Shown piece after piece: positions 5,048 through 30,524 of a stretch of DNA of 64,000 nt. The stretch comes from an uncultured Verrucomicrobiae bacterium (lineage in GTDB: Bacteria > Verrucomicrobiota > Verrucomicrobiia > Chthoniobacterales > Chthoniobacteraceae): positions 11,038 to 75,037 of the forward strand of contig CAVWMS010000001.1 of the NCBI GenBank assembly GCA_963756185.1. The letters run 5' to 3'. Under the pieces are notes generated by a model. That model made no database searches, had not been told where the DNA came from, and was given only the letters and a program-made list of their open reading frames with translations. Numbering within the stretch: position 1 is the stretch's first letter; every line of letters begins with the position of its first letter. Position numbers and translations under genes: made by a program.

Positions 5048-5070
5048 GCCGGAATAACGCGTTTTTGAGG

Positions 5071-7579: not shown

Positions 7580-7623
7580 GACGCCCGGGGCGCGGAAGAG
7601 GACGGTCTCGGAGAATTGCTGAT

Positions 7624-8168: not shown

Positions 8169-8240
8169 CTGCCTCGCTAGGACTCGAACCTAGACAAGCA
8201 GAGTCAGAATCTGCTGTGCTGCCAATTACACCACGAGGCA
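8169..8240 (-). tRNA. tRNA-Gln (anticodon CTG).
   Basis: Reverse complement is TGCCTCG-TG-GTGTAATTGGCAGCAC-A-GCAGATTCTGACTCTGC-TTGTC-TAGGTTCGAGTCCTA-CGAGGCA-G. It has a 7-bp acceptor stem (U1:A72), GTTCGAGTC T-loop and anticodon loop TTCTGAC. CCA is not encoded. Confidence 0.8.
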
Positions 8241-8453
8241 ATCGAGCCCGGGACGTTAAAACGAGGGGGGCGGGGCGTCCACTTCTTTTTGGATTTGGGA
8301 AACCGCTCCCCGGCAGCGGCTTGGGCGGCCGGGACGCGCGCCATCCTTCCCTCTCACCGGCCAGGACCGTGGTTGCGGTCAGGGAAAATCGTGCGGGCGC
8401 AACGGGGCAAATTTAGCATTCCTTTTTCGGTGGGAGTCTTGTGGGATGGAGGC

Positions 8454-10755: not shown

Positions 10756-12143
10756 ATGAAGAAAATAGTTGTCATCGACGATGAGCGGCCGGTGTTGGCC
10801 GACGCTGCAGGCGCTGCTCGAGCGGCATGGGTATTCCGTGCAACTGGCCGGGACTGCGAGCGCGGGCCTCGGGCTCATCGAGAAGACGCAGCCGGAGCTG
10901 GTGCTCCTGGACCTGGGGCTGCCGGATGCGGCCGGGCCTCGAGACGCTGGCCAGGATCAGGCAGGACCATCCGGACATCGCGGTCATCATCATCACGGCG
11001 CAGGACTCGCTCAGCAATGCCATCGAGTCGATCAAGCTGGGCGCGTTCCATTTCATCTCGAAGCCCTACGCGCCCGAGGAATTGCTCAACGTCATCGTGC
11101 GCGCGCTCGAGCAGCGCGACCTGGTAAAGGACCGGGACCAACTGATGGCGAAGACGGCGGAGCTGGCGCGCCAGCTCGAGGAGGCGCAGATGCAGCTCGC
11201 GCCGACGGTCACCAGCCGGCGCATGCGCGAAATCCACGAACTGGTGGCGCGCGTCGCGCCGAGCGACGCAAATGTGCTCATTACCGGCGAGAGCGGCGTG
11301 GGCAAGGAAGTGGTGGCGAACCAGATTCACCGGCTCAGCACCCGGCAGGCCGGCCTGATGGTGAAGTTGAATTGCGCGGCCTTTCCGCAGAACATGATCG
11401 AGAGCGAGTTGTTCGGCTATGTGAAAGGGGCGTTCACGGGCGCGGCGAATGATTTTCCGGGGATGATCCACGAGGCCGCGGGCGGCACGCTCTTCCTGGA
11501 CGAGATCGCGGAGATGCCGCCGGATTTGCAGACCCGATTCCTGCGGGTGCTGCAGGACCGCGAGTATCGCTCTCTCGGCAGCACGAAAACGGTGAAGGCC
11601 GATTTCCGGCTCGTCGCGGCCACCAACCGGCCCGTCCAGGCGGCGCTGGCCGGCGGCGCGCTGCGGCAGGATTTGTATTACCGGCTCAAGACGTTCGAAA
11701 TGGAGATACCCCCGCTGCGGGAGCGGCGCGAGGATATTCCCGCGCTGGCGCTGCAATTCGCGCGCCGGTTCGCCGCGCAGATGAACAAAGGCGAGCCGCG
11801 CTTTTCGCCGGAGGCGTTCCGGGTGTTGATGGATTACAATTGGCCTGGCAACGTGCGCGAGCTGCAAAACGCGGTCGAGCACAGCATCGTGCTGTGCGAA
11901 AGCGGCTCGGTAATGCCGAAACATCTCCCACGCGAGCTGCGCCTGCCGGCGATCCTGCAGGAGGCCGCGGTGCAATCGATCAACGGCGGGGGGAACCTGA
12001 AGCTGGACGTGCGGGAACGCGAGGCGATCCTGCAAGCCCTGGCGCAATGCCACGGCAATAAAAAGAAGGCGGCGGCCGTGCTCGGCATCCACCGTCCGAC
12101 CTTGTACTCGAAAATGAAACGGTACGGGATCGAATTGAAGTGA
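10756..12143 (+). pseudogene. Sigma-54-dependent response regulator (NtrC family: REC + AAA+ + Fis-type HTH) with two +1 frameshifts in the receiver domain, at about 10795 and about 10925.
   Basis: MKKIVVIDDERPVL is in frame 1. TLQALLERHGYSV...LVLLDLGLPD is in frame 2. GLETLARIRQDHPDIAVIIITAQDS and onward is in frame 0. Downstream it is intact: GESGVGKEVVA, GAFTGA, ESELFGY, NWPGNVRELQN and a C-terminal HTH. Confidence 0.6.
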
Positions 12144-16960: not shown

Positions 16961-17854
16961 ATGAGGACTTCCCTCGACTTGAGCGGCTTGACTTCGCTGA
17001 TGAGGCGAACGGCTGGCCGCAGGGGGGTCATCATCGGGCTCGTGGATGGGCCTGTGGATATGGGAAATCCGAATTTCGCAACTGAGGCGATTCGCGAAAT
17101 GGCCATGCATTCGCCAGGTCAGACGGGCGCCTGTAATTTTCCCCAGAGTAATTCGTGCCGGCACGGCACATTCGTGGCTGGCATTCTCGCCGCCAAGCGC
17201 GGCTCCGATGCGCCCGCGATATGTCCCGGATGCACTGTGCTGTTGCGCCCGATCTTTTCGGAGGAAGAATCATCGGATTCAATGCCCGCAGCTTCTCCGC
17301 GCGAACTTGCCGACGCCATCGTGGAGGTAGTGCAGGCAGGAGCCAATATTGTGAATCTCAGTTGTCAACTGCCGCGTGGTTCGGCAGGTGCGGAACGAGA
17401 CCTCGACGACGCCTTCAATTACGCCGCATCGCGCGGCGCAATTTGCGTAGCCGCGGCGGGCAACGAAGGATCGCTCGGAAGTTCCGCCATCACAAGGCAT
17501 CAATGGGTGATTCCGGTGGCCGCCTGTGACCGAACCGGCCATCCTACGGAAGGATCGAACCTGGGACATTCGATAGGCCGCCGCGGGTTGCTTGCTCCCG
17601 GCGACAGCATTCGCAGCCTCGGGGCCGAGCACGAAGACTATCCCGTGAGCGGCACCAGCGCGGCTGCGCCCTTTGTTGCCGGCGCGGCGGCGTTGCTTTG
17701 GTCGGAATTTCCCGAAGCAAAAGCGGTGGATGTCTGGCAGGCTCTCAACCTGATCCAAGTTTTGCGGCGCACCAGTGTGGTGCCGCCCCTGCTTGATGCA
17801 TGGCGATCGTATCAATGGCTGAATTCGCATTTTGGCAGGACACAAACCCTATGA
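16961..17854 (+). CDS. Subtilisin-like serine protease (peptidase S8) consisting of the catalytic domain only, with no signal peptide.
   Basis: Asp-box GVIIGLVDGPVD, His-box HGTFVAGILAA and Ser-box GTSAAAPFVAGAAALL. The N-terminus is hydrophilic. Confidence 0.8.
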   Translation: MRTSLDLSGLTSLMRRTAGRRGVIIGLVDGPVDMGNPNFATEAIREMAMHSPGQTGACNFPQSNSCRHGTFVAGILAAKRGSDAPAICPGCTVLLRPIFSEEESSDSMPAASPRELADAIVEVVQAGANIVNLSCQLPRGSAGAERDLDDAFNYAASRGAICVAAAGNEGSLGSSAITRHQWVIPVAACDRTGHPTEGSNLGHSIGRRGLLAPGDSIRSLGAEHEDYPVSGTSAAAPFVAGAAALLWSEFPEAKAVDVWQALNLIQVLRRTSVVPPLLDAWRSYQWLNSHFGRTQTL

Positions 17855-18069
17855 AAAAGGGAGGCAGAGCAACTGTATCCGAGCCCAGCAGTCCTCAGCC
17901 GCACGTCGTTCGCCTGCCTGGCTGGATCGTGAAGGAGGAGGTTGGACTCGGAGACGTCATCAAACGGGTCACCCGCGCGATTGGGATTCCGACCTGCCCG
18001 GGCTGCCAGCGTCGCGCCGACACACTTAACCGCTGGGTAAAAATCACCCCTGGCGACCACAAAACATAA
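17851..18069 (+). CDS. Small protein (73 aa) translationally coupled to the subtilase through an ATGA overlap.
   Basis: MKKGGRATVSEPSS...IPTCPGCQRRADTLNRWVKITPGDHKT. No recognisable domain. Confidence 0.45.
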   Translation: MKKGGRATVSEPSSPQPHVVRLPGWIVKEEVGLGDVIKRVTRAIGIPTCPGCQRRADTLNRWVKITPGDHKT

Positions 18070-18101
18070 ACACCAAAAATAATAACAAGAAAACCGACAT
18101 C

Positions 18102-19031
18102 ATGACAACAGCCACCGAGACCAATGAACCCGCCGACGCCGTCCAGGCAGCCAGCGACTCCAACCCGGTTACAGCCGCCGCGCCGGCAACTGCGCTTCCA
18201 AGAGCAGTTTCGCCCCCGGGCTCGTGTCCAACCTGCGCCACGGCGCCGGCTGGCGCCCGGGCAAATTCCTACGTCTGGGCAATTGGAAAGATCGAGCCAC
18301 AATTCATGGGCATTGCGGAGGAGAAGGAATACGCGCAGGTCGTCGGTGGTATTGAAACGGAGGGTCTTACCAAGCGCCAGGTCTTCTCCAAGGTGCTCAA
18401 AAATCCAAATTATCATTATTTAATGCGGGATGGTCTCGCTTGGATCATGAGAATTGGCGGGCAGGAGGTCTATGAGTTAAAGCCGCGCTACGAAAGCGAT
18501 TTTCATCTCCTCGTAGAGTCGTTTCAACCTGAGGTCGACTCAAACGCGCTTGACGCCGTTATTGGGACGAACGTCGGGATGCCGCGTCAAGGGCTACGCG
18601 GCGCACCGTTGCTGCCCGTCGTGAGAGTCCACCAGATTTATACCTTTACTAAAGAACATTTGATTAAGGGAATTCCAGGCGATAAAAAATCCCATACAAA
18701 AGAGTTCAACGCCTCTGCCCACGAGGTGCTCAATCGGATTCTGGCCTTTACGGAAAATCTCGGCAACACCGATTGCGACCGCGCGAAGAACTGGATCGCG
18801 TTGCGCAGTCCGTACCTTTACAAAATCGTGGCGGAATGTCATGGACGCGACTTGGAGTTGGCCAGGATAGAGTGCCGCCCCCACCCGCTTTCCGGAGCCC
18901 GCAACCTTGTCGACCTATTGCTCCGATTTGAGTCGCGAGGAAAGGAGTTTGGCGAGAAATATCGCGTTATTCTGGACATGACTGACGCCCTCCCGTTCCA
19001 AGTTTCCCCATTTGAGCGTTACTACGCTTAA
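18102..19031 (+). CDS. Hypothetical protein (309 aa) in the subtilase / cysteine-rich protein operon.
   Basis: Long ORF with lower GC. Ala/Pro-rich N-terminus with CPTC. No recognisable domain. Confidence 0.55.
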   Translation: MTTATETNEPADAVQAASDSNPVTAAAPATALPRAVSPPGSCPTCATAPAGARANSYVWAIGKIEPQFMGIAEEKEYAQVVGGIETEGLTKRQVFSKVLKNPNYHYLMRDGLAWIMRIGGQEVYELKPRYESDFHLLVESFQPEVDSNALDAVIGTNVGMPRQGLRGAPLLPVVRVHQIYTFTKEHLIKGIPGDKKSHTKEFNASAHEVLNRILAFTENLGNTDCDRAKNWIALRSPYLYKIVAECHGRDLELARIECRPHPLSGARNLVDLLLRFESRGKEFGEKYRVILDMTDALPFQVSPFERYYA

Positions 19032-19035
19032 TAAT

Positions 19036-20247
19036 ATGAACATGAGAATACCGCAATTCACCGCTGAACTGGCGCTGTCTTCCCCACGAAACTGGACTAA
19101 AGGGTTCGAAGTCGCCGAGTACGGCCCCAAAAGATCGACCATGCACTATCGCGCCGCTGGCTTTCGGAAGGCAGGGCAAGGCTCGCGGGGGGTCGTGCCG
19201 GCGCAGGACGGATGTGTTACATTGGGTGGGCAGATTTATTGCCCGGTGGTAGTAGGAAACCCGACGGCGTGTCCTCCCGGCACTTTCGGAATACCCCCAA
19301 ATTGCCAGTCCCTGCCCGCTTTTCCGCATTGTCCAATCGGGCAAACGAATTGTAATCCATTTGGAATACTACCTACGATGTGTACGAACCTTCAGACGGA
19401 TTCGAACAATTGCGGAAGCTGTGGAAACCAATGTAAGAACGGCCAGACGTGCCAAGACGGAGCTTGCGCCTGTCCAGGCGGGAAACCCCTCAATAGCTTG
19501 CAGAATTGCGGAACCTGCGGGCGCACCTGCACCGCCCCCTCGGGTGGGACCGCTTCCTGTGCTAACGGAAGCTGTAACTGGGTCTGCAACAGTGGCAGCG
19601 GCTACAGTAACTGCACCGGCCACAGCTGTACGAATACACAATCTGACCGGAACAACTGCGGCTCCTGTGGGTACATCTGTTCACAACACGTACCACAGAA
19701 TTCGACCGCGACGGGATGTACTAACGGACATTGCAACTGGCAGTGCAACAGCGGGTACACGGACCAAAGTGGGAAATGCATTCAAACGTGTCCGCAAGGC
19801 GATACCAGTTGCGGCGGGGCCTGCGTGAATCTTCAAACTGACCGGAACAACTGCGGCTCCTGTGGGTATAACTGTTCACAACACGTCCCGCAGAATTCGA
19901 CCGCGACGGGATGTACAAAGGGGCATTGCAACTGGCAGTGTAACAGCGGCTTTGTGGACCAAAACGGAAAGTGCGTTCGATCGTCAGGAGGCTGCGCTCA
20001 GGGTTACGAGAGCTGCGGAAGCGGTTGTTGTCCTGACGGAACGTGCTGTGACACCGTCTGCATGACATCTTCCGACGATACATGCTGCGGCAATGGGAAT
20101 GTTGCCACCGGGGATCAAATCTGCTGCGGCGGTGCCGGCTGTTCGACTGACGGTTGCTGCCAGACCGAGCTTGGATATACGTGCTGTGATCCCTGGGTGT
20201 GCTGCGGTGACGGCACTTGCGCTCCTGATAGCGATTCATGCGATTAA
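19036..20247 (+). CDS. Cysteine-rich protein with multiple Stig1-like D-x-x-N-C-G-x-C-G-x-x-C repeats. Paralog 1.
   Basis: LQTDSNNCGSCGNQC, TQSDRNNCGSCGYIC and LQTDRNNCGSCGYNC. N-terminal MNMRIPQFTAELAL with no Sec signal. About 17% Cys. Confidence 0.65.
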   Translation: MNMRIPQFTAELALSSPRNWTKGFEVAEYGPKRSTMHYRAAGFRKAGQGSRGVVPAQDGCVTLGGQIYCPVVVGNPTACPPGTFGIPPNCQSLPAFPHCPIGQTNCNPFGILPTMCTNLQTDSNNCGSCGNQCKNGQTCQDGACACPGGKPLNSLQNCGTCGRTCTAPSGGTASCANGSCNWVCNSGSGYSNCTGHSCTNTQSDRNNCGSCGYICSQHVPQNSTATGCTNGHCNWQCNSGYTDQSGKCIQTCPQGDTSCGGACVNLQTDRNNCGSCGYNCSQHVPQNSTATGCTKGHCNWQCNSGFVDQNGKCVRSSGGCAQGYESCGSGCCPDGTCCDTVCMTSSDDTCCGNGNVATGDQICCGGAGCSTDGCCQTELGYTCCDPWVCCGDGTCAPDSDSCD

Positions 20248-20277
20248 CAAAAATAGCTCCTTACTACTCCCGTTGAT

Positions 20278-22098
20278 ATGAAGATGACGGTCCCTGGATT
20301 TTTTGCCGAGTACGGTCTCGAGGGTGCCACCCGCCATTACCTGACGCTTGGCTCGGAGGAAACAGGGGGTCCCGGTTGGGATCTTGCTATGGCGACGAAC
20401 GTCTACCGAACGATGGCCGGCATTTCTGAGGCCGGCAATGTCTACGATCCCACGAGGCCAGCCGTGCGCCGCGATGGTCGTGGTTCGGGCTGCGTCGGCG
20501 GACCACCCTATATGCCATGCCTCAAGCAGGGAAGTCAGCCGGTATGCGCCGATGGGATTTGGGGAGGTGCCGGTGCTCCGCAGGGAACCCTCTGCTGGTC
20601 GCAATATCCGGAGATGGGCTACCAGGGGATTTGCAGTGGTGGCGGCGCGCCCGGAGGGAGAGGCGGCCTACCTCCCTCCCCTGGGTATTGCGACCCGTGC
20701 CCAACGGGGACAACTCTTTGCATCTCCGGAAACACCGGAGTTTGCTGCCCGGGCGTAGCGGAGTGTGAGAGAGGGAACTGCCACTGCCCCAATGGGGAGG
20801 TATTCTGCAACTCACAGTGTGTAGACACCCAGACCGACCCGAGGAACTGCGGGTTCTGCGACAAAGCGTGCCAGGCTGGACAGGTCTGCTGCAGCGGTTC
20901 TTGCACTGACATCAGCAGTGATAGTAACAACTGCGGAGCTTGCGGTAGCACATGTCAGCAGGGGGACGGAACGTGCTGCGGCGGTCGATGCTGTCCGGAG
21001 CGTTACGGGACCTGTTGTAACGGCCAGTGCTGCCCGGACCCCTTCTTTTGCTGCGGTAGTTCCTGCTGTTCCAACGGAGAGCTCGGCGGTGAGCCGCAAG
21101 CCTGCTGCAACGGCAGCTGCCAGCCCCAGGACGAGCAGCACTGCGGTTTTTCCTGCCAATCGTGCACAGGAGGCCAAACCTGCCAGCTTGATCCCTCGCA
21201 GGGCTATCACGGTTATGCATGCCTTTGCTCAAGTGGGGAAACACTCAGCAATGGTCTGTGTTGCCCATCAGGGCAGACAAACTGCAACGGCAATTGCGTA
21301 GCCCCGCCGGGCGCCGGCGCTCTTAGTAGCAACAGCAATTTCATGCTCTCGAACAATTGCGTGAGTATAGCGGGTCCGAATGGCAGTCTGAAAGTATCAT
21401 TGCTGGCTGGAACGGAGGATTTGGTTTCAGAAAATGGATTCTCGTTTCAGCTGAACGGGTTTCCTCCACCGCTGACGCCTACGTCACCGAATGGGTGCCC
21501 TTCCTCTGCTGATTTTTGCTGCATGGCTCCAACTGGAGTTTGCATAATGCAATATATTATCCGAGTTAGTGGGAACAATGTTTCTCCTTGGATTCAATAC
21601 TTTCAAAACAGCGGAGTGGAAAATCCGAACAACGACCCGTTTGCCACGCTGCCTGCCGGGAAGGCGAACACCCTTCCTGCCGGGTGGGCTCTCGAAATCA
21701 CATTGGAAAACGACGAGAATGGGAATGTCGATGGGATAATCCTTAGCGTCATAGACAACACCGGGCACACGGTTGGCTGCGCTGACCAAGGGCAGACAGG
21801 TTCCTGCCAACAAATGCCGATGCCGGTGGATCCCAATTCTGGCCTGCCACTCTTGTTCGCAAATCTAGCTTTTTCGGCAGTCGCGGTCGCTCTCCCGGGG
21901 AGTAGCGAGGCTAAGTTCACGTCTGGGGGCGGATGCATCACCTACGAAGTTTCAGAGGGGCAATTATGTGAGACGCAGGATAATTGCACGAACTTCGATG
22001 CGGGTACAACTGAGCAGTCAAACGCTTCCTACGGTGCCTTGAGCGCCACGTGTGGCTCCTCCTTGAGTCAATCCGTAACCACTTCGGATGCGTCCTAG
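20278..22098 (+). CDS. Cysteine-rich Stig1-like repeat protein with a C-terminal domain shared with the 22395 gene. Paralog 2.
   Basis: TQTDPRNCGFCDKAC and ISSDSNNCGACGSTC. The C-terminal ...GFSFQLNGF...ITYEVSEGQLC...YGALSATCGSSLSQSV aligns with the C-terminus of paralog 3. N-terminal MKMTVPGFFAEYGL. Confidence 0.65.
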   Translation: MKMTVPGFFAEYGLEGATRHYLTLGSEETGGPGWDLAMATNVYRTMAGISEAGNVYDPTRPAVRRDGRGSGCVGGPPYMPCLKQGSQPVCADGIWGGAGAPQGTLCWSQYPEMGYQGICSGGGAPGGRGGLPPSPGYCDPCPTGTTLCISGNTGVCCPGVAECERGNCHCPNGEVFCNSQCVDTQTDPRNCGFCDKACQAGQVCCSGSCTDISSDSNNCGACGSTCQQGDGTCCGGRCCPERYGTCCNGQCCPDPFFCCGSSCCSNGELGGEPQACCNGSCQPQDEQHCGFSCQSCTGGQTCQLDPSQGYHGYACLCSSGETLSNGLCCPSGQTNCNGNCVAPPGAGALSSNSNFMLSNNCVSIAGPNGSLKVSLLAGTEDLVSENGFSFQLNGFPPPLTPTSPNGCPSSADFCCMAPTGVCIMQYIIRVSGNNVSPWIQYFQNSGVENPNNDPFATLPAGKANTLPAGWALEITLENDENGNVDGIILSVIDNTGHTVGCADQGQTGSCQQMPMPVDPNSGLPLLFANLAFSAVAVALPGSSEAKFTSGGGCITYEVSEGQLCETQDNCTNFDAGTTEQSNASYGALSATCGSSLSQSVTTSDAS

Positions 22099-22394
22099 AA
22101 TTCTACAAGCCAGTTTTGGCGTGCCTATGTTGGGCTTCGAAATCGCCCCCTATTGCAGCATTAAAAAAGGAATAAACCGTGTTCAATCCACTTGCTCCCG
22201 TCTGGCGAGACACCGCCATTGGTCACTACACGTATTTTACGAATGGAGAGGAAAATGCCTCCCCTATTTGAAGGATGCCCAATTGCACGAAAACAAAGGT
22301 TACTATGACAATTACCGCGGAGAACAATGAACTGACAAGCGCCCTCCAGTCGGACGCCAAAATCACACACTAAGACGACCATTAGAACAATTAT

Positions 22395-23570
22395 ATGAAC
22401 CTGCCCCAATTTACGGCCGAGTTTGCGCTTTACCGGTCAAAGAATGTCTACCGGGAAAATGGCGCTGCCGCCGAAATGACGGATTGGGACCCGCAAATAC
22501 TACCGGCGGGACCGTCGCAGCATCCTGGTGGCGGTTTTGGTGGCGGTCCTCAGGTCCATTGTGTGGCACCCTATTCACAATGTGGAAATGTCTGCAAGGA
22601 TCTGAGTACGGATGCCGCTAACTGCCATGAGTGCGGCAATGTTTGCGCAGATGATATGTGCTGCATAGGGGGTAGATGCACGACGGTTGACACCAATTAT
22701 GATAGTAATAACTGTGGAGACTGTAATAGCAAATGCCCTTTGATTGCGCCATTTTGCTGTAGCGGTGAATGCCTCACCATCGAAATGGCTGAAAAGTGCC
22801 AGAATTGTGGCACCAATTGCCCGACCGGGTATTACTGCGGTGGCGATGGCTACACATGCATCGCATGCCCGGCGGGACCAGATCCCATACAATCGCCGGG
22901 AAGCAATGTTAATTATATAATGTACAACTCATGCTCGCCCATTGACCAGCTGAGTTATTCTATGTATGTCAATAAGGATCTCGTCTCGGGATCGGGCGGT
23001 TTTTCTCTGCAATTCAATAATTATACAAAGGCGACGGGTTACGAAAATACGGTCATTCAGCTTATTTTCCACGTAAGCGACCAAATTTTGGCCCATATAC
23101 AATATCCGGGAGGCACCCCTGATGGAATTGATCATGATTGGCAGAAGAGCTTTTCAAAAATTACATTGGAGAACGATACGTTGCCCGCTCATTACACATT
23201 GGGGGTTGCTCTCAGTAATGATGGCAACGGGAATATTAATGGAGCTGCCTTTACGGTTGAAGATAATAATGGGAAGAGTTACACAATCTCTGCCCCTGCT
23301 TCTGCCTTTCCTTCCGGGAAGTATCTGTATCCCATTTCCGAATTCCAAGCGAATCTTGTCGGGTATGGCGGGGGCGCGACCGCGAGCTTTTCTCCCGGAG
23401 GAAAGGCAACAATAACTTACTCCTCGGAGGGACAACTATGCGTAGAAGGGGCTAATCCAAATTGTACAGGCAGTGATCTTATAACGGATGAAAAAGCGAA
23501 TACCGGATATGGAGAATTGAGCAGTTGCTGTGGTGGGTCTTTAACGCAGCCGGTATTTATTACTTCTTGA
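22395..23570 (+). CDS. Cysteine-rich Stig1-like repeat protein, paralog 3. Lower GC.
   Basis: MNLPQFTAEFAL N-terminus, LSTDAANCHECGNVC and YDSNNCGDCNSKC. The C-terminal ...GFSLQFNNY...ITYSSEGQLC...YGELSSCCGGSLTQPV is paralogous to the 20278 protein. Confidence 0.65.
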   Translation: MNLPQFTAEFALYRSKNVYRENGAAAEMTDWDPQILPAGPSQHPGGGFGGGPQVHCVAPYSQCGNVCKDLSTDAANCHECGNVCADDMCCIGGRCTTVDTNYDSNNCGDCNSKCPLIAPFCCSGECLTIEMAEKCQNCGTNCPTGYYCGGDGYTCIACPAGPDPIQSPGSNVNYIMYNSCSPIDQLSYSMYVNKDLVSGSGGFSLQFNNYTKATGYENTVIQLIFHVSDQILAHIQYPGGTPDGIDHDWQKSFSKITLENDTLPAHYTLGVALSNDGNGNINGAAFTVEDNNGKSYTISAPASAFPSGKYLYPISEFQANLVGYGGGATASFSPGGKATITYSSEGQLCVEGANPNCTGSDLITDEKANTGYGELSSCCGGSLTQPVFITS

Positions 23571-23709: not shown

Positions 23710-23949
23710 TTACAGGCGGCGGAAGGGGGTTCGCTCGTTGAGGCTGCCGCAGCGGGGGCAGCGGGCGAGGAGGTCGGTGGAGGGGTCTTCGAATTCGAAG
23801 GAGCAGAGGGCGCAGCGGAGGCGGTGGCGGAAGGCTTGGCGTTCGCGGCGGAGGCGCCCGATGTTCCAGACGATCCAGTTGCCGAAGATGAGGGTGAGGA
23901 AGATGCCTAGATAAACGAAGACCAGGGTTGTGAGGGAGACCTGGATCAT
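23710..23949 (-). CDS. Small membrane protein with a C-terminal zinc-ribbon (CxxC...CxxC).
   Basis: One TM helix (LVFVYLGIFLTLIFGNWIVW) followed by CALCSFEF...CPRCGSL. Overlaps the upstream TonB-like gene stop. Confidence 0.45.
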   Translation of the reverse strand: MIQVSLTTLVFVYLGIFLTLIFGNWIVWNIGRLRRERQAFRHRLRCALCSFEFEDPSTDLLARCPRCGSLNERTPFRRL

Positions 23950-24713
23950 GGAGCCGAGGCTGTGGGTTGGGCGTAGACGGCGGCGCCCCAGTAGAAGGTG
24001 GCGAAGCCCCAGGTCATGGCGGTTGTCGAGGGATGGAAGCGGACTTGCTCGAGGAGGCGGCCGGCGTCGGCGTCGAGGGTTTTGTCGCCGGAGGAATCCT
24101 GGAGGAAGACGAATTGGACTTCGCCCTGGGCGGAGACGCCGAGGAGGTAGCGGGCGGGTTGGATTTGGACGTCGCCGACGTCTTCCTGGCGCAGGGCGTC
24201 AAGCGAGGGCGTGGAGTCGATGGGGGCGCTCTCAAGGGGGCCGGTGAAGCTGAGGACTGTTGAGACGGGTGGGGCGGGGGAAGCGGCGGGTGTGGGATGG
24301 GCGGCGGCCATTTGGACGAGGTCGAGGCCGCTGACGCCGGCTGGGTACGGGACGGGCTGTTCGGTGACGGCGGGAATGACCGGTTTGGCGTGGACGGTGG
24401 AGTAGGAGGGATTGTAGGGCAGGCTCATGAGGCCCGGGGACGGGTATGCCTTGGTGGGCTGGGCGGCGCGGGCGGGGTCCTCGGAATCGATCCAGCGGAG
24501 GATGGCGTCGGCCTCTGGTGTGCCGGGAGTGATCAGGCCGACCTGGACGGGGGGCGGGCCGACGTGCGCGGCGGGTGGATAGATGGTTTGAAAGATGTAA
24601 AAGCCGAAGGCGTGGACGCAGGCGGAGAGGAGGATGAAACCGAGCAGCGCCCAGGGAATGCGACCGGCATCACGCCCGGGAAAGACGAGGTTCGCCTCGG
24701 CTTGCGGGCTCAT
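23946..24713 (-). CDS. TonB-like energy-transducer (N-terminal TM anchor, Pro-rich spacer, C-terminal domain).
   Basis: The TM helix is LLGFILLSACVHAFGFYIF and the Pro-rich segment is PPVQ...PAASPAPPV. It is directly downstream of exbD with a 4-nt overlap. Confidence 0.5.
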   Translation of the reverse strand: MSPQAEANLVFPGRDAGRIPWALLGFILLSACVHAFGFYIFQTIYPPAAHVGPPPVQVGLITPGTPEADAILRWIDSEDPARAAQPTKAYPSPGLMSLPYNPSYSTVHAKPVIPAVTEQPVPYPAGVSGLDLVQMAAAHPTPAASPAPPVSTVLSFTGPLESAPIDSTPSLDALRQEDVGDVQIQPARYLLGVSAQGEVQFVFLQDSSGDKTLDADAGRLLEQVRFHPSTTAMTWGFATFYWGAAVYAQPTASAP

Positions 24714-25114
24714 GACCGCTCCGGGGCGGTGGCGAGGACGACGGGCAGGCCGGCGCGCAGCCCTTCGTCCACGACGCGCATGACGAGGGCGTAAGGGGTG
24801 GAGCTGTCTGCGCGGACGATGAGGGTGTGATCTTTCAGGTCAGGCGAAGAGAGAGCCTGGCCGATTTGATCGAGCTCCCAGCGGCGGTCGCGGAAGAAGA
24901 TGGCCGGGGCGGAGCCGCCGGTGATGGTGAGGATCTGGGGATTTTTCTGCGGGCCGAGAGTCCAGGAGGAAAAAGGGAGGGTAATGGCGATGCCGGGCTG
25001 GAGCAGGAAGCGGGAGCTGACGGAAAAGAAGAGGACGACCAGGAACAGGACGTTGATGATCGGGATGAGGCCAAAGAGCGCCGGATGAAATTTGACGGTC
25101 CGGGTGAGATTCAT
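24710..25114 (-). CDS. exbD: ExbD/TolR family biopolymer transport protein.
   Basis: About 134 aa, with a single TM helix (PIINVLFLVVLFF) and a periplasmic domain ...HTLIVRADSSTPYALVMRVVD. Confidence 0.75.
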   Translation of the reverse strand: MNLTRTVKFHPALFGLIPIINVLFLVVLFFSVSSRFLLQPGIAITLPFSSWTLGPQKNPQILTITGGSAPAIFFRDRRWELDQIGQALSSPDLKDHTLIVRADSSTPYALVMRVVDEGLRAGLPVVLATAPERS

Positions 25115-25159
25115 CTTTCGGACATGGGCCGCGGGCTCGGGCGGTTACGGAGAGCTTGT

Positions 25160-25840
25160 TTACTCGGCGGTGCGGGCGCGGCGTGGCGACTTGAAATCGA
25201 TGATCTGGGCGGCGGCGTCCTCGGGGTCGCGAGCGCCGGTGATGAGGCTGACGACTTCGATGCCGCCGCGCTCCATGTCGCGCATGAGGGTATTGACGCG
25301 GGAGGAGAGATAGCTGTAGGCGGCGAAGGAGGGGATGGCGACGACGAGGCCGGCGGCGGTGGTGAGGAGGCTCTGGTAGATGCCGCCGGAGAGATCGGTG
25401 GTGCTGGCGAGGCCGCTGTGGCTGGAGATGGTGACGAAGGTTTCGATGAGGCCGGTGACGGTGCCGAGGAGGCCGATGAGGGGGGCGATGAGGGCGATGG
25501 TGCCGAGGAGGCCGAGGTTGCGTTCGAGGTTGGCCATTTCGAGCTGGCCGGCTTCCTGGACGATTTCCTTGAGTTCATCGCGCGGGGCCTCGTGGCGGAT
25601 GATGGCGGCGTGGATGACGCGTGCGACAGGTCCCGGCGTACCTGCGCATTCATGCAGAGCCTCGGCGAAATTGCGGCGCTGAATGAGGTTGGCGAGGCCG
25701 CGGAGGAATTCTCCGACGCGAATGCTTGCCCGGTAGTAATAAGTGACGCGCTCGGCAAAAATGGCCGCGGCGATCACGCTGCAGACGAGGATGAGCCACA
25801 TGAGCGGCCCACCTTTTTGCATGTAGTCCAGCATGGAGGG
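25160..25840 (-). CDS. exbB: MotA/TolQ/ExbB proton-channel protein.
   Basis: LMWLILVCSVIAAAIFAERV..., ...LGTIALIAPLIGLLGTVTGLI... Start at MLDYMQKGG. The upstream (NL)n segment comes from the hexamer repeat and is noncoding. Confidence 0.75.
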   Translation of the reverse strand, partial: PSMLDYMQKGGPLMWLILVCSVIAAAIFAERVTYYYRASIRVGEFLRGLANLIQRRNFAEALHECAGTPGPVARVIHAAIIRHEAPRDELKEIVQEAGQLEMANLERNLGLLGTIALIAPLIGLLGTVTGLIETFVTISSHSGLASTTDLSGGIYQSLLTTAAGLVVAIPSFAAYSYLSSRVNTLMRDMERGGIEVVSLITGARDPEDAAAQIIDFKSPRRARTAE

Positions 25841-25912
25841 GAGGTTATAGGGCAAGTCGGGGGGGAAGCAAGGGGGAAGGCAGCCCTGATTTCGGGGGCT
25901 AGGGGAGGCTGA

Positions 25913-25960
25913 GTTCAGGTTCAGGTTTAAGTTCAAGTTCAAGTTCAGGTTCAGGTTCAA
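25913..25960. repeat. Tandem hexamer (GTTCAR)x8 flanked by about 34-bp direct repeats (AAGGGGGAAGGC..CCCTGATTTYGGGGGCTAGG), lying within the operon between the Pro-rich gene and exbB.
   Basis: The sequence is gttcag gttcag gtttaa gttcaa gttcaa gttcag gttcag gttcaa. The direct-repeat copies are at 25870..25903 and 25959..25994. Confidence 0.8.
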
Positions 25961-25989
25961 GGGGGAAGGCGACCCCCTGATTTTGGGGG

Positions 25990-27780
25990 CTAGGCGACGG
26001 TCGAGAGGTCGTCGGCGGCGGCGATTAGGGCGTCGTGGGCGACCGATCCGAGGAGGCGGTCGTAATGGAGGGCGACGACGAAGTGGGTGTCGCGGACGAC
26101 CGTGGTGGCGTGAAACTGGTCGCAGTCGATGGTGACGATGCGGTTCCAGCCGAGGCGCTGGCCGCTCTCCTTTGCGTGATCGACAAAGGAGCCGATGAAA
26201 TCGCGCAGGGCATCGAGGTCGGGCTTGCGGGGAAAATCGGCGCTTGCGAAGACGGCGCCTTTGACGAAGGCGGCGGCGGCGAAAATGCCGGGCTGATTGG
26301 CGAGGAAATCGGCGGTGCGCCTGGCCTCGGGCATGGAGGCAGTGTCGGCGGAGGAATCGGGTTCGGATGGATTTTCGGCGAGCGCGGGTTCAGGGCGCAG
26401 AAGAATGGGAGGAGGGACCTGGAAGCCGTGCATCCATGGGACGCGCTGAAGCGGGGGCGGTTCGGGTGTGGGCTGGGGCTCAGGCTCGGAAAATTGCGCG
26501 GCAGGCGGTTCCGGTTTTTGGGCGGCGGAAGGTTCGGGCGCGGGCTCCGGAGCTGCTTGCGCGGTGGGGGGTTCGGGTGCGGACTCGGTGTTGGCTTCGG
26601 CGGCTGGAGGCTCTGGTTCGGGGGTGTTGGGATCGGCCGGTGGTGTTTGGGCTGCTTCAGGGGTCGCTTCGGATGGTTTGGGCTCGTCGACTTTTTTGGG
26701 AGTGGGCTCGGAGGTTGGAGGCTCGATGATGGTGGTGGTGGAGTCGCCGAAGGGCGGCATGTAAAATGGATGATCGAGCGGGAGGCTTTGGAAAATCTCG
26801 TCGAGCGGAATCCAGACGCGGGCGTGTGGAAGCGGGTTGAGCATCGGGCGCAAATCCTCGGGCAGCGCCTTGATGAAATCGTTGATGGGGATTTCGACGT
26901 GGCCCTCGGCGAGCTGGGTTTCGATGGCGGCGAGCGGGAAAGCCGCGAGCGCGGCTTTTGAAGGAAGCGGACCCGGACGGAGGATCTTGGTTGGGAGCAG
27001 GCGGAAAATGGGAAGGAGGCGCAGGGAGATGGTCGGGGTGGGTTGGGCTGCCGGTTCGGGCGTGGTGGTTTCGGGAGGAGGGGTTGGCGCGTCGGCGGCC
27101 GGTTGCGGAGAAGGGGGTTCGACGTTGGCAGGAGGTTCGATTTTCGCGGACGCTCCTTCCTTTGGCGGTGTGACAGGTTCTTTTTCTTCGGCGATTGGTT
27201 TTTCGGGCGGCTTCGGCTCATCGGAGCGGCCGAAGAGGCCGAGGACGGAGGAGATCGCCTTGGAGATCAACGGTTGCGCGGTGGAATCGGCGGGATCCTT
27301 GCGGGCGGGCTCGGGCTCGATTGGAGCGGCGGGTGCGGGCGGCGGATTGACGACCCGTGTGGTTGCGGCCTCGATGATGACGCTGGCCTTCGCGCGAGCC
27401 CTGGCGGCATGTTCGAACGGGACGCCGTTGGGTGCGGGGGCCTTGCGCGCAACGAGGCCGACTTGCTCGAGTAATTTTTGAAGGGGAAGCTGGACTTCGC
27501 GTTCATCGGGCGAGGCCGACTCGGGCCGGAAGACGCCGGGGCATGCGGCAGTGAGCCGATCAAGTGGGACCGTGACGCGCCCACGGGCGATTTTTACCGC
27601 CAACTCGTCCACGACGAAACGGACCTGGGAGGAGTTGTCGTGAGGGCCCGGCTTGATGAGGTGCGAGGGCACTCGCGGCAGAATGTCGCCGAGCCGAAGG
27701 ACGATCTCCTGAGCCTCGTTTTGCGGCTCGGGCTTGGTTTCGAGATCGCTGGGGGCGCTCATTGGGCGTGATGGTAGCAA
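25990..27780 (-). CDS. Proline-rich protein with an internally duplicated N-terminal module and a C-terminal roadblock/LC7-like domain.
   Basis: The duplicated module appears as ILPRVPSHLIKPGPHD...VTVPLDRL... and again as LLPTKILRPGPLPS...VEIPINDF... Many PEPxP-type repeats. The C-terminus ...FHATTVVRDTHFVVALHYDRLLGSVAHDALIAAADDL resembles an MglB/roadblock fold. Confidence 0.55.
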   Translation of the reverse strand: MLPSRPMSAPSDLETKPEPQNEAQEIVLRLGDILPRVPSHLIKPGPHDNSSQVRFVVDELAVKIARGRVTVPLDRLTAACPGVFRPESASPDEREVQLPLQKLLEQVGLVARKAPAPNGVPFEHAARARAKASVIIEAATTRVVNPPPAPAAPIEPEPARKDPADSTAQPLISKAISSVLGLFGRSDEPKPPEKPIAEEKEPVTPPKEGASAKIEPPANVEPPSPQPAADAPTPPPETTTPEPAAQPTPTISLRLLPIFRLLPTKILRPGPLPSKAALAAFPLAAIETQLAEGHVEIPINDFIKALPEDLRPMLNPLPHARVWIPLDEIFQSLPLDHPFYMPPFGDSTTTIIEPPTSEPTPKKVDEPKPSEATPEAAQTPPADPNTPEPEPPAAEANTESAPEPPTAQAAPEPAPEPSAAQKPEPPAAQFSEPEPQPTPEPPPLQRVPWMHGFQVPPPILLRPEPALAENPSEPDSSADTASMPEARRTADFLANQPGIFAAAAFVKGAVFASADFPRKPDLDALRDFIGSFVDHAKESGQRLGWNRIVTIDCDQFHATTVVRDTHFVVALHYDRLLGSVAHDALIAAADDLSTVA

Positions 27781-27863
27781 AAGCAGCGGCGCTTGACACT
27801 ACTGATTAGCGGCCTGCCGATTTAGCCTGAAAGTTTCACGCGCCGGCGCGAAAAAAATCCGGG

Positions 27864-29573
27864 TTAGTGATCCTCGGAAGTCACGCGGCCGACTTCTTCG
27901 AGTGTGGTGACGCCTTCGCGGGCCTTGTCGATGCCGACGACGCGCAGGCTCTTCATGCCTTCGGCAATGGCCTGGGCCTTGATGACGGCGGCGGAGGCGC
28001 GTTTGATGATGAGGCGGCGGATGGATTCGCTGACGGCGAGGACTTCGAGGATGGCGGCGCGGCCCAGGTAGCCGCGGCGTTTGCAACGGTCGCAGCCGGC
28101 GCCCTTGTAGAAAGAGGTCTCCGGGTCATCGATCTCGAGTTTATCGAGCATCTCGGGTTCCGGCTTGTATTCCTCGCGGCAATTGGGGCAGATGCGGCGC
28201 ACGAGACGTTGTGCGCAGGAGAGGATGACGGAGGTGGAAATGAGGAAGGGCTCGATGCCCATGTCATCGAGACGGGTGATGGCGCCCGCAGCGTCGTTGG
28301 TGTGAAGGGTCGAGAGCACCTGGTGGCCGGTGAGGGCGGCCTTGACGGCGATGTCGGCGGTTTCGTTGTCACGAATTTCACCGATCATCACGATGTCGGG
28401 GTCCTGGCGCAGGATGGAGCGGAGCGCGCCGGCGAAGTCGAGGCCGATCTCGCTCTTGACGGCGACCTGGTTGATGCCGGCGAGCTGGTATTCAATCGGA
28501 TCCTCGACGGTGACGATATTGTACTCCGGGTTGTTGAGTTCCTGGAGGACGGTGTAGAGGGTCGTGGTTTTACCGGAGCCGGTGGGGCCGGTGACGAGGA
28601 TCATGCCGTGCGGGGCGTCGATGGCCTTCTTGAAGCAGCCGAGGGTGTGTTCGTCCATGCCCATGTTGTCGATGGAGCCGGAGAGGGCGCTCTTGTCGAG
28701 GAGACGGATGACGATTTTTTCGCCGTGAACAGTGGGGAGGACGGAAATACGAAGATCGACTTCCTTGCCCGAGACGCGGATGCGGAAACGACCGTCCTGC
28801 GGGAGGCGGCGCTCGGCGATGTCGAGGCCGGCGAGAATCTTGATGCGGGAGGCGATGGGCAACTGGAGGGCCTTGGGCGGGGAGCTGGCCTCGACCAGGG
28901 CGCCGTCAACGCGGTAGCGGAGCTTGAGGGTCTTTTCGAAGGGCTCGATGTGAATATCGGAGGCTTTTTCCTTGAGGGCCTGGACGAGGATGAGGTTGAC
29001 GATCTTGATGACCGGGGCGTCCTCGCTTTCGTGGGCGAGCTTGTCCAGGTCGATTTCCTCGCGCTTCTGGGTGACGACCTCGGCTTCGCTGGCTTCCTTG
29101 GAGACCTCCTGGATCATCTGCTCCATCTGCTGGCCGGCGCTGTTGACGCCGCTCAGGGCCTCCATGACGGCACGCTCGGTGGTGATCATGGGGACGATCT
29201 CCATCTTGGTGCGCTGGCGCAGGTCGTCGAGGGCCAGGACGTTGAGGGGATCGGCCATCGCGACGAAGAGCTTGTTGGCGAGGCGGCAGATGGGGGCCAG
29301 CTTGTAGGCGCGGGCCATGTCCTTGGGCACCAGTTCGAGCACGTCCTCGGGGACGCGGACACGGGAGAGATTGATGGGAGGCGTATCGAGGCAGCGGCCC
29401 ATGGAGATGACCATGTCCTGCTCGGTCACGAAATTGCGGTCGGTGAGGATTTTCAGCAGGCGTCCGCCCTGCTTTTTCTGGATATCAGTGGCCTCATCGA
29501 GCTGGCTGGCCAGCAGCAGCCCGTCCTCGATGAGGACATCCGCGATGCGTTCGCCGAAAGATTTGATGCTCAT
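27864..29573 (-). CDS. GspE/PilB-family secretion/pilus ATPase with an N-terminal GspE_N (MshEN-like) domain.
   Basis: Walker A GPTGSGKTT, tetracysteine CPNC...CDRC, and an N-terminal RIADVLIEDGLLLASQLDEA motif. Confidence 0.85.
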   Translation of the reverse strand: MSIKSFGERIADVLIEDGLLLASQLDEATDIQKKQGGRLLKILTDRNFVTEQDMVISMGRCLDTPPINLSRVRVPEDVLELVPKDMARAYKLAPICRLANKLFVAMADPLNVLALDDLRQRTKMEIVPMITTERAVMEALSGVNSAGQQMEQMIQEVSKEASEAEVVTQKREEIDLDKLAHESEDAPVIKIVNLILVQALKEKASDIHIEPFEKTLKLRYRVDGALVEASSPPKALQLPIASRIKILAGLDIAERRLPQDGRFRIRVSGKEVDLRISVLPTVHGEKIVIRLLDKSALSGSIDNMGMDEHTLGCFKKAIDAPHGMILVTGPTGSGKTTTLYTVLQELNNPEYNIVTVEDPIEYQLAGINQVAVKSEIGLDFAGALRSILRQDPDIVMIGEIRDNETADIAVKAALTGHQVLSTLHTNDAAGAITRLDDMGIEPFLISTSVILSCAQRLVRRICPNCREEYKPEPEMLDKLEIDDPETSFYKGAGCDRCKRRGYLGRAAILEVLAVSESIRRLIIKRASAAVIKAQAIAEGMKSLRVVGIDKAREGVTTLEEVGRVTSEDH

Positions 29574-29597
29574 GGGATGCTCTGGAGTGGGAAAGGG

Positions 29598-30524
29598 TTA
29601 TTCGCGGCCATCGAGGCGATAGGCATCGCGCAGCGCCTTGGCGATGGCGGCGGGAGCGGCGACGTGCCACTGGATGTTGTAATCGAGAAGCTGCTGGACG
29701 GCCTCCTTGCCCTGGGCGTCGAATGGATTGGCCGTGGCGATCATGATGGTGCGGCTGATGAGGTCGAAAGGAACGATGAGGCGGCCGAGGGTGAGCTGCT
29801 CGGGCAGCATGCGAACGACCTGGCGGTCCACCTCGTAGCAATCGAGGGGGATGTAGGCGAACTTCGAGCGTTCGAGGATGCCGCAAAGGAGGGTTTCGAG
29901 GCTCGACATGCCGCTCTTGGCGATGTCATCGATGAGCGAGGAGGCGAGCGCTTGCGGCCCGGCGTTCTTGTTGATCTTCGTCACGCGCTCGAGGGAGGTG
30001 CGCACGGTCTCCTCGGGGGCGAGCCTGTGCTGGATGAGGAATTTGGCGAGGGCCTCGTTGCCGTCGTTTTCCAGCTTCAATTCCACGCCGGCGCCTTCGG
30101 GCTTGATGGTGGCGCTGGTGGTGATGAGGGTGGGGTCTTCGGCGATGATCGAGCCGAAATCCATCGAGATGGGGGAATCGGCCGGCTGGATCGATTTTTC
30201 CGAGGGCTTGCCGTTGACGGGGTGAAGCTTTGTCTCGACCTCGGCCAGCATCTTGGTCACTTCGGCGTTGTTCGGCTCCTTTTGGAGGATGCCTTCGTAC
30301 TCGAGGAGGGCGGAAGAATACTGGCCGAGGGAGTAATAGGCGTCCGCGAGCTTGCGGGTGATGGCCAGGGCGTCGCTCTGGCGGTTGAGCTTCCAGTAGG
30401 CCTCCTTGAGGATCTCCATCGACTGGCAATCCTGGGCGTTCGACTGCAGAATGACCTCGAACATCTCGATGGTCTGTAATATCTGGTCGAGTTCCTCGTT
30501 AGTGACGCTCTGCGCGGTGGTCAT
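29598..30524 (-). CDS. TPR-repeat protein with a C-terminal GspE_N (T2SSE_N) domain.
   Basis: The N-terminus is TPR-like (ADAYYSLGQYSSALLEYEGILQKEPNNAEV). The C-terminus ...LPEQLTLGRLIVPFDLISRTIMIATANPFD is typical of GspE_N. Confidence 0.65.
   Translation of the reverse strand: MTTAQSVTNEELDQILQTIEMFEVILQSNAQDCQSMEILKEAYWKLNRQSDALAITRKLADAYYSLGQYSSALLEYEGILQKEPNNAEVTKMLAEVETKLHPVNGKPSEKSIQPADSPISMDFGSIIAEDPTLITTSATIKPEGAGVELKLENDGNEALAKFLIQHRLAPEETVRTSLERVTKINKNAGPQALASSLIDDIAKSGMSSLETLLCGILERSKFAYIPLDCYEVDRQVVRMLPEQLTLGRLIVPFDLISRTIMIATANPFDAQGKEAVQQLLDYNIQWHVAAPAAIAKALRDAYRLDGRE

Follow-up and report, generated by a model that had tools for sequence, protein, structure and literature searches.

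A pilB-containing gene trio and an ExbB/ExbD-type quartet lie together on one strand

Within a 64,000-nucleotide stretch of DNA from an uncultured Verrucomicrobiae bacterium (GenBank assembly GCA_963756185.1, contig CAVWMS010000001.1; hereafter the window), we analysed seven open reading frames (ORFs) that fill positions 23710-30524 of the minus strand and, as a first-pass annotation of this DNA had recorded, run head to tail (Table 1). The first three genes encode a protein with tetratricopeptide repeats (TPR) and an MshEN domain, a PilB-type ATPase and a proline-rich protein that we call the scaffold; together they form the trio. The remaining four, the quartet, encode an ExbB/TolQ-like protein, an ExbD/TolR-like protein, a TonB/TolA-like protein and a membrane-anchored zinc-ribbon protein of 79 amino acids (aa), here called Zn79. 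The host belongs to the Chthoniobacteraceae (Verrucomicrobiota), and the named relatives of the scaffold protein are all Chthoniobacterales. Comparison with 46 related loci, namely 37 genome loci and 9 further contigs (referred to by L numbers), revealed that the seven-gene block consists of two or three separable units, and that unit 1, the trio, most likely represents a type IVa pilus (T4aP) extension and polarity module.

The trio encodes a T4aP PilB-type ATPase and a TPR-MshEN protein

Judged by its sequence, the product of the second gene is a T4aP PilB-type ATPase with intact catalytic motifs. It matched the Pfam models T2SSE (PF00437, 470 bits) and MshEN (59.9 bits) and has complete Walker A (GPTGSGKT), Walker B (IVMIGEIRD), Asp box (DLRIS) and His box (TGHQVLSTLH) motifs as well as the tetracysteine CPNC...CDRC. 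Its best relatives of solved structure, over the full length, are PilB of Myxococcus xanthus (3jc8, 538 bits) and PilB of Geobacter, and these T4aP PilB matches include the N-terminal region that is left uncovered by matches to EpsE/GspE. Across the related loci, orthologues of the ATPase are 68-94% identical. The gene directly upstream of pilB, in the window as in nearly all related loci, encodes the TPR-MshEN protein, for which 1,890 homologues were found and which, by its domain content, combines TPR repeats with a counterpart of the PilB N-terminal domain that stands apart from the ATPase. MshEN (PF05157) was found at residues 224-306 with 43.4 bits (cutoff 23.1) and TPR_14 at residues 55-95, and NCBIfam scans, run for the window proteins at an E-value of 0.1 or less, returned weak matches to the N-terminal regions of PilB, TfpB and NfrB. 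BLASTP alignment of the TPR-MshEN protein with PilB gave no match, so that it is the Pfam model alone that relates the two. The identities proposed for both genes in the first-pass annotation, a TPR protein with a GspE_N domain and a GspE/PilB ATPase, are thus borne out, with PF05157 reaching its hidden Markov model (HMM) threshold in both proteins.

The same annotation had read the N-terminus of the ATPase as an MshEN motif of the kind that often binds cyclic di-GMP (c-di-GMP). The motif described by Wang et al. consists of two 24-residue segments, RLGxx(L/V/I)(L/V/I)xxG(L/V/I)(L/V/I)xxxxLxxxLxxQ, that lie 5 residues apart (PMC5013675), and neither PilB nor the TPR-MshEN protein contains a match to the strict or the relaxed form of this pattern. 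In the ATPase N-terminus, 9 of the 11 relaxed positions agree in the best 24-mer, the second copy of the motif is degenerate, and the score against NCBIfam NF053729 was 36.3 (cutoff 38). Aligned with Vibrio cholerae MshE (PMC5013675), the N-terminal four-helix region of the ATPase is in register (R9, G18, Q32, R38) and is followed by PF05157, as in MshE; however, motif 1 has Ala in place of Gly3 and Thr in place of Leu21, and in motif 2 the residues Gly3, Gly10 and Gln24 are replaced by Leu, Asn and Cys, respectively. The resemblance is hence a near match only, and c-di-GMP binding by the ATPase is not supported by the motif tests.

The scaffold protein has a duplicated module and ends in a Roadblock fold

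The third gene encodes 596 aa when read from a TTG start; an identical database copy (P0001), which is encoded on a contig of 1.07 Mb, begins at the ATG at 27762 and has 590 aa. The protein contains 17.6% proline and has no transmembrane (TM) segment. It has no Pfam or NCBIfam match, and 16 relatives likewise lack a Pfam match at an E-value of 1 or less. An alignment of the family shows three conserved blocks that are separated by variable proline-rich linkers, and a close search found the family in Chthoniobacterales only. We found no description of it in the literature. Two of the blocks are copies of one module: hhalign aligned copy 1 with copy 2 over 83 columns (probability 96.5%, E 7.9e-10), which confirms the internal duplication noted in the first pass, and the joint alignment of the copies is nearly gap-free. 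This module of about 88 aa has no Pfam model and no fold match in the PDB. A profile built from it retrieved 1,285 representative clusters at an E-value of 1e-3 or less among 1.84 billion proteins; in most of the matches listed the module is present in two copies and in a few in 3, 6 or 10, and ten distant members of the module family contained no Pfam domain.

The third block, at the C-terminus, adopts the Roadblock arrangement alpha-beta-beta-alpha-beta-beta-beta plus the C-terminal helix of MglB. This domain is visible only through structure and through distant members of the family, two of which scored 24.8 (L035) and 21.6 (L037) against Robl_LC7 (PF03259, cutoff 23). Of the MglB-like C-terminal domain proposed in the first pass, the fold and the kinship through distant members therefore stand, while the window protein itself lies below HMM detection. 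We consider the link of the scaffold to small-GTPase polarity control well founded, since mglA and mglB directly follow the scaffold gene in distant orthologous clusters (see below).

Orthologous clusters encode MglA and MglB and adjoin pilus genes

Among the related loci, the genes for the TPR-MshEN protein, PilB and the scaffold almost always occur together. Of 33 informative loci, an automated count found 27 in which pilB immediately precedes the scaffold gene; it missed L044, where the order is the same, through a coordinate artefact. Insertions displace pilB in L001, where about 9.8 kb (223-10001) were inserted, and in L038, where a PMT_2-like gene on the opposite strand (4279-5868) lies between pilB and the scaffold gene and a gene for a GNAT acetyltransferase (8344-8823) precedes exbB. 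The trio is also present in the cultured species Chthoniobacter flavus Ellin428 (L017, 5990-12343), in which it is flanked by genes for anthranilate synthase, an FG-GAP protein and dihydroxy-acid dehydratase and has no exb genes nearby.

In L035, L037, L040, L042, L044, L045 and L047, the scaffold gene is directly followed by canonical mglA and then mglB, and L005 joins these loci when any MglA-family gene adjoining the scaffold cluster is considered. The MglA proteins of the relatives score 236 bits against M. xanthus MglA and have a highly conserved N-terminal sequence, and the assignments were confirmed against PDB sequences; the MglB proteins match Robl_LC7 with 43.7 bits and MglB with an E-value of 2e-17. 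Pilus genes adjoin several of the orthologous clusters as well: pilin, PilC, two PilB paralogues and PilT in L005, PilC and minor pilins in L044, and pilMNOPQ with extra Roadblock, PATAN and GTPase genes in L043, while the L047 cluster adjoins a secretin gene. The first-pass annotation had considered the arrangement closer to the Agl/Glt gliding machinery than to type IV pili (T4P). Both the solved relatives of the ATPase, which are T4aP PilB proteins, and the pil and secretin genes beside these four clusters argue against that view. A published survey of small GTPases lists MglA-family members with variable neighbourhoods in Verrucomicrobia (PMC4316618), and in the literature we found neither a PilB-MglA or PilB-ExbB cluster described in Verrucomicrobia nor any pilB-scaffold-mglA-mglB cluster.

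Three of these loci have further peculiarities. In L005, the gene that comes after the scaffold gene (12257-12829) encodes a degenerate relative of MglA that matches the M. xanthus protein at E 5e-20. Its P-loop is aberrant, reading GPAGGGKR where the consensus is GxxxxGK[ST], and the protein may be a pseudo-GTPase; the gene faces the pilin-pilC-pilB-pilT-pilB cluster. In L043 (1521-14918), the relative of the scaffold has 1,465 aa and 10 module copies and is followed by two Roadblock proteins, two PATAN proteins, an Arf-like small GTPase and pilM-pilN-(pilO-pilP)-pilQ, so that this locus is an expanded version of the scaffold theme attached to the pilus alignment complex. In L047 (1-3015), an MshEN-PilB-scaffold-MglA-MglB cluster is preceded, at a distance of about 3 kb, by genes for an ordinary ExbD and a TPR protein of 867 aa, with the secretin gene in between, which makes this locus a second, independent case of exb-type genes near a pilB cluster.

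The quartet is a rigid block that can be separated from the trio

The quartet acts as one rigid unit: overlaps of 4 nt and a last gene for 79 aa recur in every case. It follows the scaffold gene only in the clade of the window (L038, L039 and, in part, L002), in L022, L028 and L003, and in the distant L040. The joining of Exb-type genes to an ATPase cluster, which the first pass had singled out as unusual, thus recurs in the window clade (L038, L039), L022, L028 and L040. L003 retains the scaffold gene next to the quartet, and pilB is not found within 10 kb. L040 has nine genes in a row, encoding the TPR-MshEN protein, PilB, the scaffold, MglA, MglB, the ExbB-like, ExbD-like and TonB-like proteins and Zn79, and its TPR-MshEN and TonB-like proteins are 39% and 32% identical to those of the window, respectively. 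That the seven genes form a single operon, as first proposed, is not supported by these comparisons: most loci have the trio without the quartet, the quartet also occurs alone, genes were inserted in L038 and L001, and in the window the two sets are parted by a 155-bp spacer.

This spacer became apparent upon correction of the exbB start. ExbB homologues match the ORF from residue 35-43 onward only, and translation therefore probably begins at the ATG at 25834. With this start the gap after the scaffold gene amounts to 155 bp, in place of the 84 bp or less stated in the first pass. The first ~42 codons of the ORF, which have no counterpart in homologues, cross a hexanucleotide array, (GTTCAG)x7.8 at 25913-25959, that was detected with Tandem Repeats Finder, is flanked by a direct repeat of about 30 nt (25961-25991 and 25872-25900) and yields a spurious 'NLNLNL...' extension at the N-terminus. 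The array could be a regulator-binding array, a slippage-prone tract or an insertion remnant. The corresponding gap in relatives measures about 35 bp in L003, about 84 bp in L028 and about 174 bp in L039.

The ExbB- and ExbD-like proteins lack the canonical proton-relay carboxylates

The ExbB-like protein matched MotA_ExbB (PF01618) with 104 bits and the ExbD-like protein PF02472 with 52.6 bits, in line with the identities first assigned to them; against the TIGR models tolQ and exbB, the ExbB-like protein scored 93.5 and 61.5, both far under the cutoffs. Aspartates D25 of ExbD, D23 of TolR and D32 of MotB are the residues that accept protons. HMMER alignment to ExbD (6tyi and 7ajq) placed Asn21 of the ExbD-like protein over the essential Asp25 ('pIINVlf' over 'pFIDVml'), and alignment of the ExbB-like protein to TolQ (8odt) and ExbB (7ajq) placed a Gln over the TM3 glutamate, Glu176 of ExbB and Glu173 of TolQ ('giyQsll' over 'giaEali'/'giaEall'). 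Both substitutions extend to relatives. The TM Asp is missing from all seven ExbD-like orthologues, being replaced by Asn in six and by Cys in L040, and the TM3 position of the ExbB-like orthologues is Gln in the window, L003, L028, L038 and L039, Asn in L040 and Glu only in L022; no alternative carboxylate is conserved. The ordinary ExbD of L047 retains the Asp ('PLVDVLL'), which indicates that its loss is specific to the quartet ExbD family. Given that the proton-accepting residues are substituted, a conventional proton-driven mechanism for the quartet appears unlikely, and these residues speak against the proton-motive-force motor that the first pass had seen here.

The TonB-like protein, for which we found 77 homologues, many of them on contigs that match in length those recorded for homologues of the scaffold, comprises a short cytoplasmic N-terminus, a TM helix with an SxxxH motif, a proline-rich stretch (YPP...PPP) and a C-terminal domain. 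S30 and H34 of the motif are invariant, and L040 also has it, as SLLGH. The C-terminus scored 20.4 against TIGR01352 (tonB_Cterm, cutoff 27.1) and had no Pfam match, a profile of four TonB-like sequences found no match among PDB sequences, and the L040 orthologue, with 131 aa, lacks the C-terminal domain altogether. The designation as TonB-like is sustained by the TM motif and the proline-rich stretch, and the C-terminal domain resembles TonB_C weakly, below the threshold. Zn79 has an N-terminal TM helix, an Arg-rich segment and CxxC-x14-CxxC, in which C46, C49, C64 and C67 are invariant, and it is 79 aa long in 6 of 6 aligned sequences, so that its description as a Zn-ribbon membrane protein is upheld. 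A 79-aa orthologue is also encoded in L040 and on the contig with the stand-alone quartet.

Setting of the cluster in the window

Divergently from the TPR-MshEN gene lies the flotillin gene noted in the first pass, which we verified by its Band_7 domain match (Table 1). It occupies the same position in the closest clade (L038, L039), with 78-83% identity; other lineages have no flotillin there and carry trpE/trpG or other genes on that side. On the opposite flank is an island of lower GC content (16961-23570; 0.51-0.58, compared with about 0.62-0.65 nearby) that contains genes for a subtilase S8 (16961-17854), a PatG_D plus PatG_C protein (18102-19031) and three large Cys-rich Stig1-like proteins (19012-20247, 20278-22098 and 22395-23570). 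The island, which in the window lies between the Zn79 and IMPDH genes, looks inserted because the IMPDH gene follows the Zn79 gene in six related loci, and it may be a cluster for a ribosomally synthesized and post-translationally modified peptide or for secreted Cys-rich proteins. Further away, the domains of GlnD are split between 12140-13300 (GlnD_UR_UTase) and 13755-14966 (HD and ACT), with a gap of about 450 bp; this may reflect a frameshift, a pseudogene or a naturally split gene.

Table 1. Coordinates of the seven-gene block, its subfeatures and the neighbouring flotillin gene in the window.
Feature	Position	Strand	Basis or remark
TPR + MshEN protein, 308 aa	29598..30524	-	PF05157 + TPR_14; first gene of trio
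PilB-type (type IVa pilus extension) hexameric ATPase, 569 aa	27864..29573	-	T2SSE + MshEN
Cytoplasmic Pro-rich scaffold, 596 aa	25990..27780	-	two ~88-aa modules, Pro-rich linkers, C-terminal Roadblock
Scaffold module copy 1, residues ~22-112	27445..27717	-	hhalign with copy 2
Scaffold module copy 2, residues ~246-345	26746..27045	-	homologous to copy 1
Roadblock/LC7 (MglB-like) domain of scaffold, residues 476-596	25993..26355	-	C-terminal
Spacer, 155 bp, scaffold gene to probable exbB start	25835..25989	-	sequence + Tandem Repeats Finder
ExbB/TolQ-like inner-membrane protein, 224 aa	25160..25834 (ORF to 25960)	-	PF01618
ExbD/TolR-like protein, 134 aa	24710..25114	-	PF02472
TonB/TolA-like protein, 255 aa	23946..24713	-	start overlaps exbD by 4 nt
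Zn79, membrane-anchored zinc-ribbon protein, 79 aa	23710..23949	-	start overlaps TonB-like gene by 4 nt
Flotillin (Band_7), 715 aa	30918..33065	+	divergent from TPR-MshEN gene

Discussion

The model that we favour takes as its ground the observed gene content, domain and fold assignments, synteny and residue substitutions. In it, PilB would be the hexameric ATPase that powers pilus assembly, and the TPR-MshEN protein, which combines a domain like the PilB N-terminus with a protein-binding TPR domain, would be a plausible adaptor. The proline-rich protein would serve as a flexible cytoplasmic scaffold whose two modules probably serve as docking sites, for instance for PilB, the adaptor or the base of the pilus, and whose Roadblock domain may plug into an MglA/MglB Ras-like GTPase switch in the manner of MglB and MglC in Myxococcus, which would let the cell set where and when PilB engages; mglA and mglB would have left the locus in the lineage of the window. 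The quartet, unit 2, would make up an inner-membrane complex of its own, composed of the ExbB-, ExbD- and TonB-like proteins and of Zn79 as a cytoplasmic Zn-ribbon subunit anchored in the membrane, and this complex would help to organise the pilus machine in the envelope, by analogy with PocA-PocB-TonB3. Since the canonical proton-relay carboxylates are missing, its role is probably that of a scaffold or of a signal transducer and not that of a conventional motor driven by protons. We consider this picture as a whole, a pilus and polarity module with a cooperating quartet, slightly more probable than its negation; for the functional tie between the quartet and the trio taken by itself, which is modelled on PocA-PocB-TonB3, the chances seem about even. 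A bolder version, to which we give only an outside chance, would make the quartet an envelope-spanning transducer that is off the proton gradient and is driven or gated by MglA/MglB (through the Zn-ribbon, as in GltJ) and/or by PilB (through the Roadblock scaffold), thereby coupling pilus motor and polarity to the outer envelope, and would make the ~88-aa module a widespread PilB adaptor domain.

Several observations weigh against the favoured model. The ATPase stayed below the cutoff of the PilB equivalog TIGR02538 (646, cutoff 675.65) and just exceeded that of the GspE model TIGR02533 (632.7, cutoff 630.25). Robl_LC7 (PF03259) found no match in the window scaffold or its 16 relatives even with E-values of up to 1 allowed, and when the scaffold C-terminus was compared by hhalign with an alignment of MglB proteins from the related loci, the result was not significant (E 0.055). 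In the 64-kb window a search with the M. xanthus MglA sequence returned no mglA, and no pilC, pilin or pilMNOPQ gene was found among the ORFs scanned, the 20 ORFs beyond the cluster included, which agrees with the first-pass statement that PilC, PilM-Q and pilin genes are absent and means that the partners must sit elsewhere in the genome. Promoter and terminator scans stayed at the level of shuffled controls and are thus uninformative on operon structure, and all protein-protein contacts in the model, like the polarity role, the Poc-like role and co-transcription, are what we infer from these loci. Linkage of the quartet is lineage-restricted: only 6 of the 29 informative loci have exbB within 6 kb downstream of the scaffold gene, and the quartet also stands alone, between ruvC and a transketolase gene. 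Finally, IMPDH follows the Zn79 gene in six related loci, at 35 bp in L040; an unrelated gene that is equally tight to Zn79 shows that tight spacing is no proof of shared function, and the adjacency of quartet and pilB may reflect inherited gene order rather than function.

These last points lead to the explanation that two unrelated systems meet here, with the trio acting as proposed above and the quartet representing an independent, divergent housekeeping envelope system of the Tol/Exb type whose adjacency results from descent within the Chthoniobacterales. The stand-alone quartet beside ruvC and the lack of a quartet in most trio loci fit this explanation, as do the fact that the ExbB-like protein finds its closest match in TolQ, among families as well as in the PDB, the repeat-bearing 155-bp spacer in the window, the GNAT gene inserted in L038 and the IMPDH and trpE flanks, the conservation of which alongside the cluster would make the whole region an old syntenic block. 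On the other hand, the adjacency persists to L040 despite the low identities given above, the scaffold gene of L003 remains with the quartet while pilB is not within 10 kb, strand is shared and gaps are short (about 35-92 bp) in L003, L028 and L040, the canonical Asp and Glu are missing, unlike in an ordinary Tol/Exb energiser, and no tolB or pal gene is adjacent. We regard a neighbourhood of two unrelated systems as possible but rather unlikely. A plain Tol-Pal identity of the quartet, which the TolQ matches and the ruvC neighbour had brought up, was set aside because the defining Asp and Glu are missing and there is no adjacent tolB or pal.

Two further readings would alter the meaning of the trio as well. 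One sees in the block an Agl/Glt-like machine for surface motility or trafficking, in which a proton-driven ExbBD motor, a TonB-like transducer, a Roadblock regulator and a secretion ATPase are brought together. It draws on L040, where MglA-MglB are encoded immediately upstream of the ExbB-like protein, on the TonB-like protein and membrane-anchored cytoplasmic Zn-ribbon, which recall GltG and GltJ (PMC11135422), and on AglRQS-GltG, in which a motor of the TolQR kind is paired with a TonB-like protein (PMC3169522). It is nevertheless quite unlikely, since the ExbD-like protein lacks the TM Asp and the ExbB-like protein the conserved Glu, there is one ExbD-like gene compared with AglQ and AglS, no other Glt-type component appeared in the window ORFs scanned (a scan made without dedicated Glt profiles), the distant orthologous clusters are embedded in T4P genes and not in glt genes, and PilB-type ATPases lie outside Agl-Glt. 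The other reading takes the ATPase as GspE of a type II secretion system (T2SS), so that the trio would regulate protein secretion. TIGR02533 is indeed the only equivalog cutoff that the ATPase reached, the pilin-like gene beside the L005 cluster also matches T2SSG, and the secretin beside the L047 cluster may be of the T2SS type; yet the full-length best matches of the ATPase are T4aP PilB proteins, N-terminal region included, the PilT retraction ATPase and pilMNOPQ adjoin orthologous clusters, and MglA-type polarity control is known for T4aP and not for T2SS, which makes a secretion role very unlikely. The T4aP and polarity module hence remains our preferred reading of the trio.

The closest parallel to this module is the T4aP polarity system of M. 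xanthus, where MglA-GTP and the TPR protein SgmX stimulate formation of T4aP at the leading pole (PMC7519303, PMC7668184) and the Roadblock proteins MglB and MglC shape polarity (PMC9481161, PMC7949163). In both systems a PilB-type extension ATPase is tied to a TPR adaptor and to a switch made of a Ras-like GTPase and Roadblock proteins, the scaffold ends in a domain with the MglB/MglC fold, and relatives encode MglA and MglB in the cluster. In contrast to the dispersed genes of M. xanthus, there is one cluster headed by pilB here; SgmX has roughly 1,060 aa, whereas the TPR protein of the window has 308 aa and an MshEN domain and shares with it only a weak TPR match; and Roadblock is fused to a long proline-rich protein with at least two novel modules, with mglA and mglB lying outside the window.

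For the quartet, PocAB-TonB3 of Pseudomonas aeruginosa offers the nearest analogy. This homologue of ExbBD-TonB is needed for T4aP expression and/or polar localisation by a mechanism that is not known (PMC5285504), and it is an ExbB/ExbD/TonB-homologous complex that is tied to the assembly and polar placement of T4aP and not to nutrient uptake; the composition of the quartet is compatible with such a complex, and the window set is physically linked to pilB and polarity genes. The window set differs in its fourth subunit, Zn79, in the loss of the ExbD Asp and ExbB Glu, and in being pilB-linked in some lineages only. The Agl-Glt machinery, in which AglR and two TolR-like subunits (AglQ, AglS) work with a GltC/D/E/G core (PMC3169522) and in which the Zn-ribbon and linker of GltJ bind MglA-GTP and recruit MglB (PMC11135422), likewise has a channel of the MotA/TolQ/ExbB family, a TonB-like transducer and a cytoplasmic Zn-ribbon; the quartet counterparts are encoded near MglA/MglB in L040. 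Here, however, the single ExbD-like protein is without the proton-relay Asp, the Zn-ribbon is a separate 79-aa protein and the context is that of T4P; no homologues of GltA-K turned up, although no dedicated Glt profile search was made. With ExbB-ExbD-TonB and TolQ-TolR-TolA the quartet shares the Pfam families of the first two proteins, a one-one-one gene order with overlapping starts and SxxxH. It departs from them in having Asn for ExbD Asp25/TolR Asp23 and Gln for ExbB Glu176/TolQ Glu173, a TonB_C domain that is sub-threshold and gone in L040, an extra Zn-ribbon protein and no adjacent TolB or Pal genes.

The PilB, Roadblock, MglA/MglB and ExbBD-TonB components are therefore of known kinds, and what is new here is the compact clustering, the fusion of Roadblock to a novel repeated module and an ExbBD pair that lacks the carboxylates and has a Zn-ribbon subunit. 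How MglA/MglB control type IV pili is understood almost only in Myxococcus, with its scattered genes and an indirect link to PilB. One cluster that holds pilB, a TPR adaptor, a scaffold ending in Roadblock and often mglA-mglB, in Chthoniobacterales and related uncultured lineages, would point to a direct wiring of GTPase and motor that can be tested biochemically. An ExbB/ExbD pair without both proton-relay residues is a natural experiment on such complexes that do not conduct protons in the usual way, and the quartet may illuminate the unexplained connection between Poc and T4P in Pseudomonas. These findings would gain clearly in importance should the quartet turn out to be a non-protonmotive transducer that is coupled to PilB or MglA.

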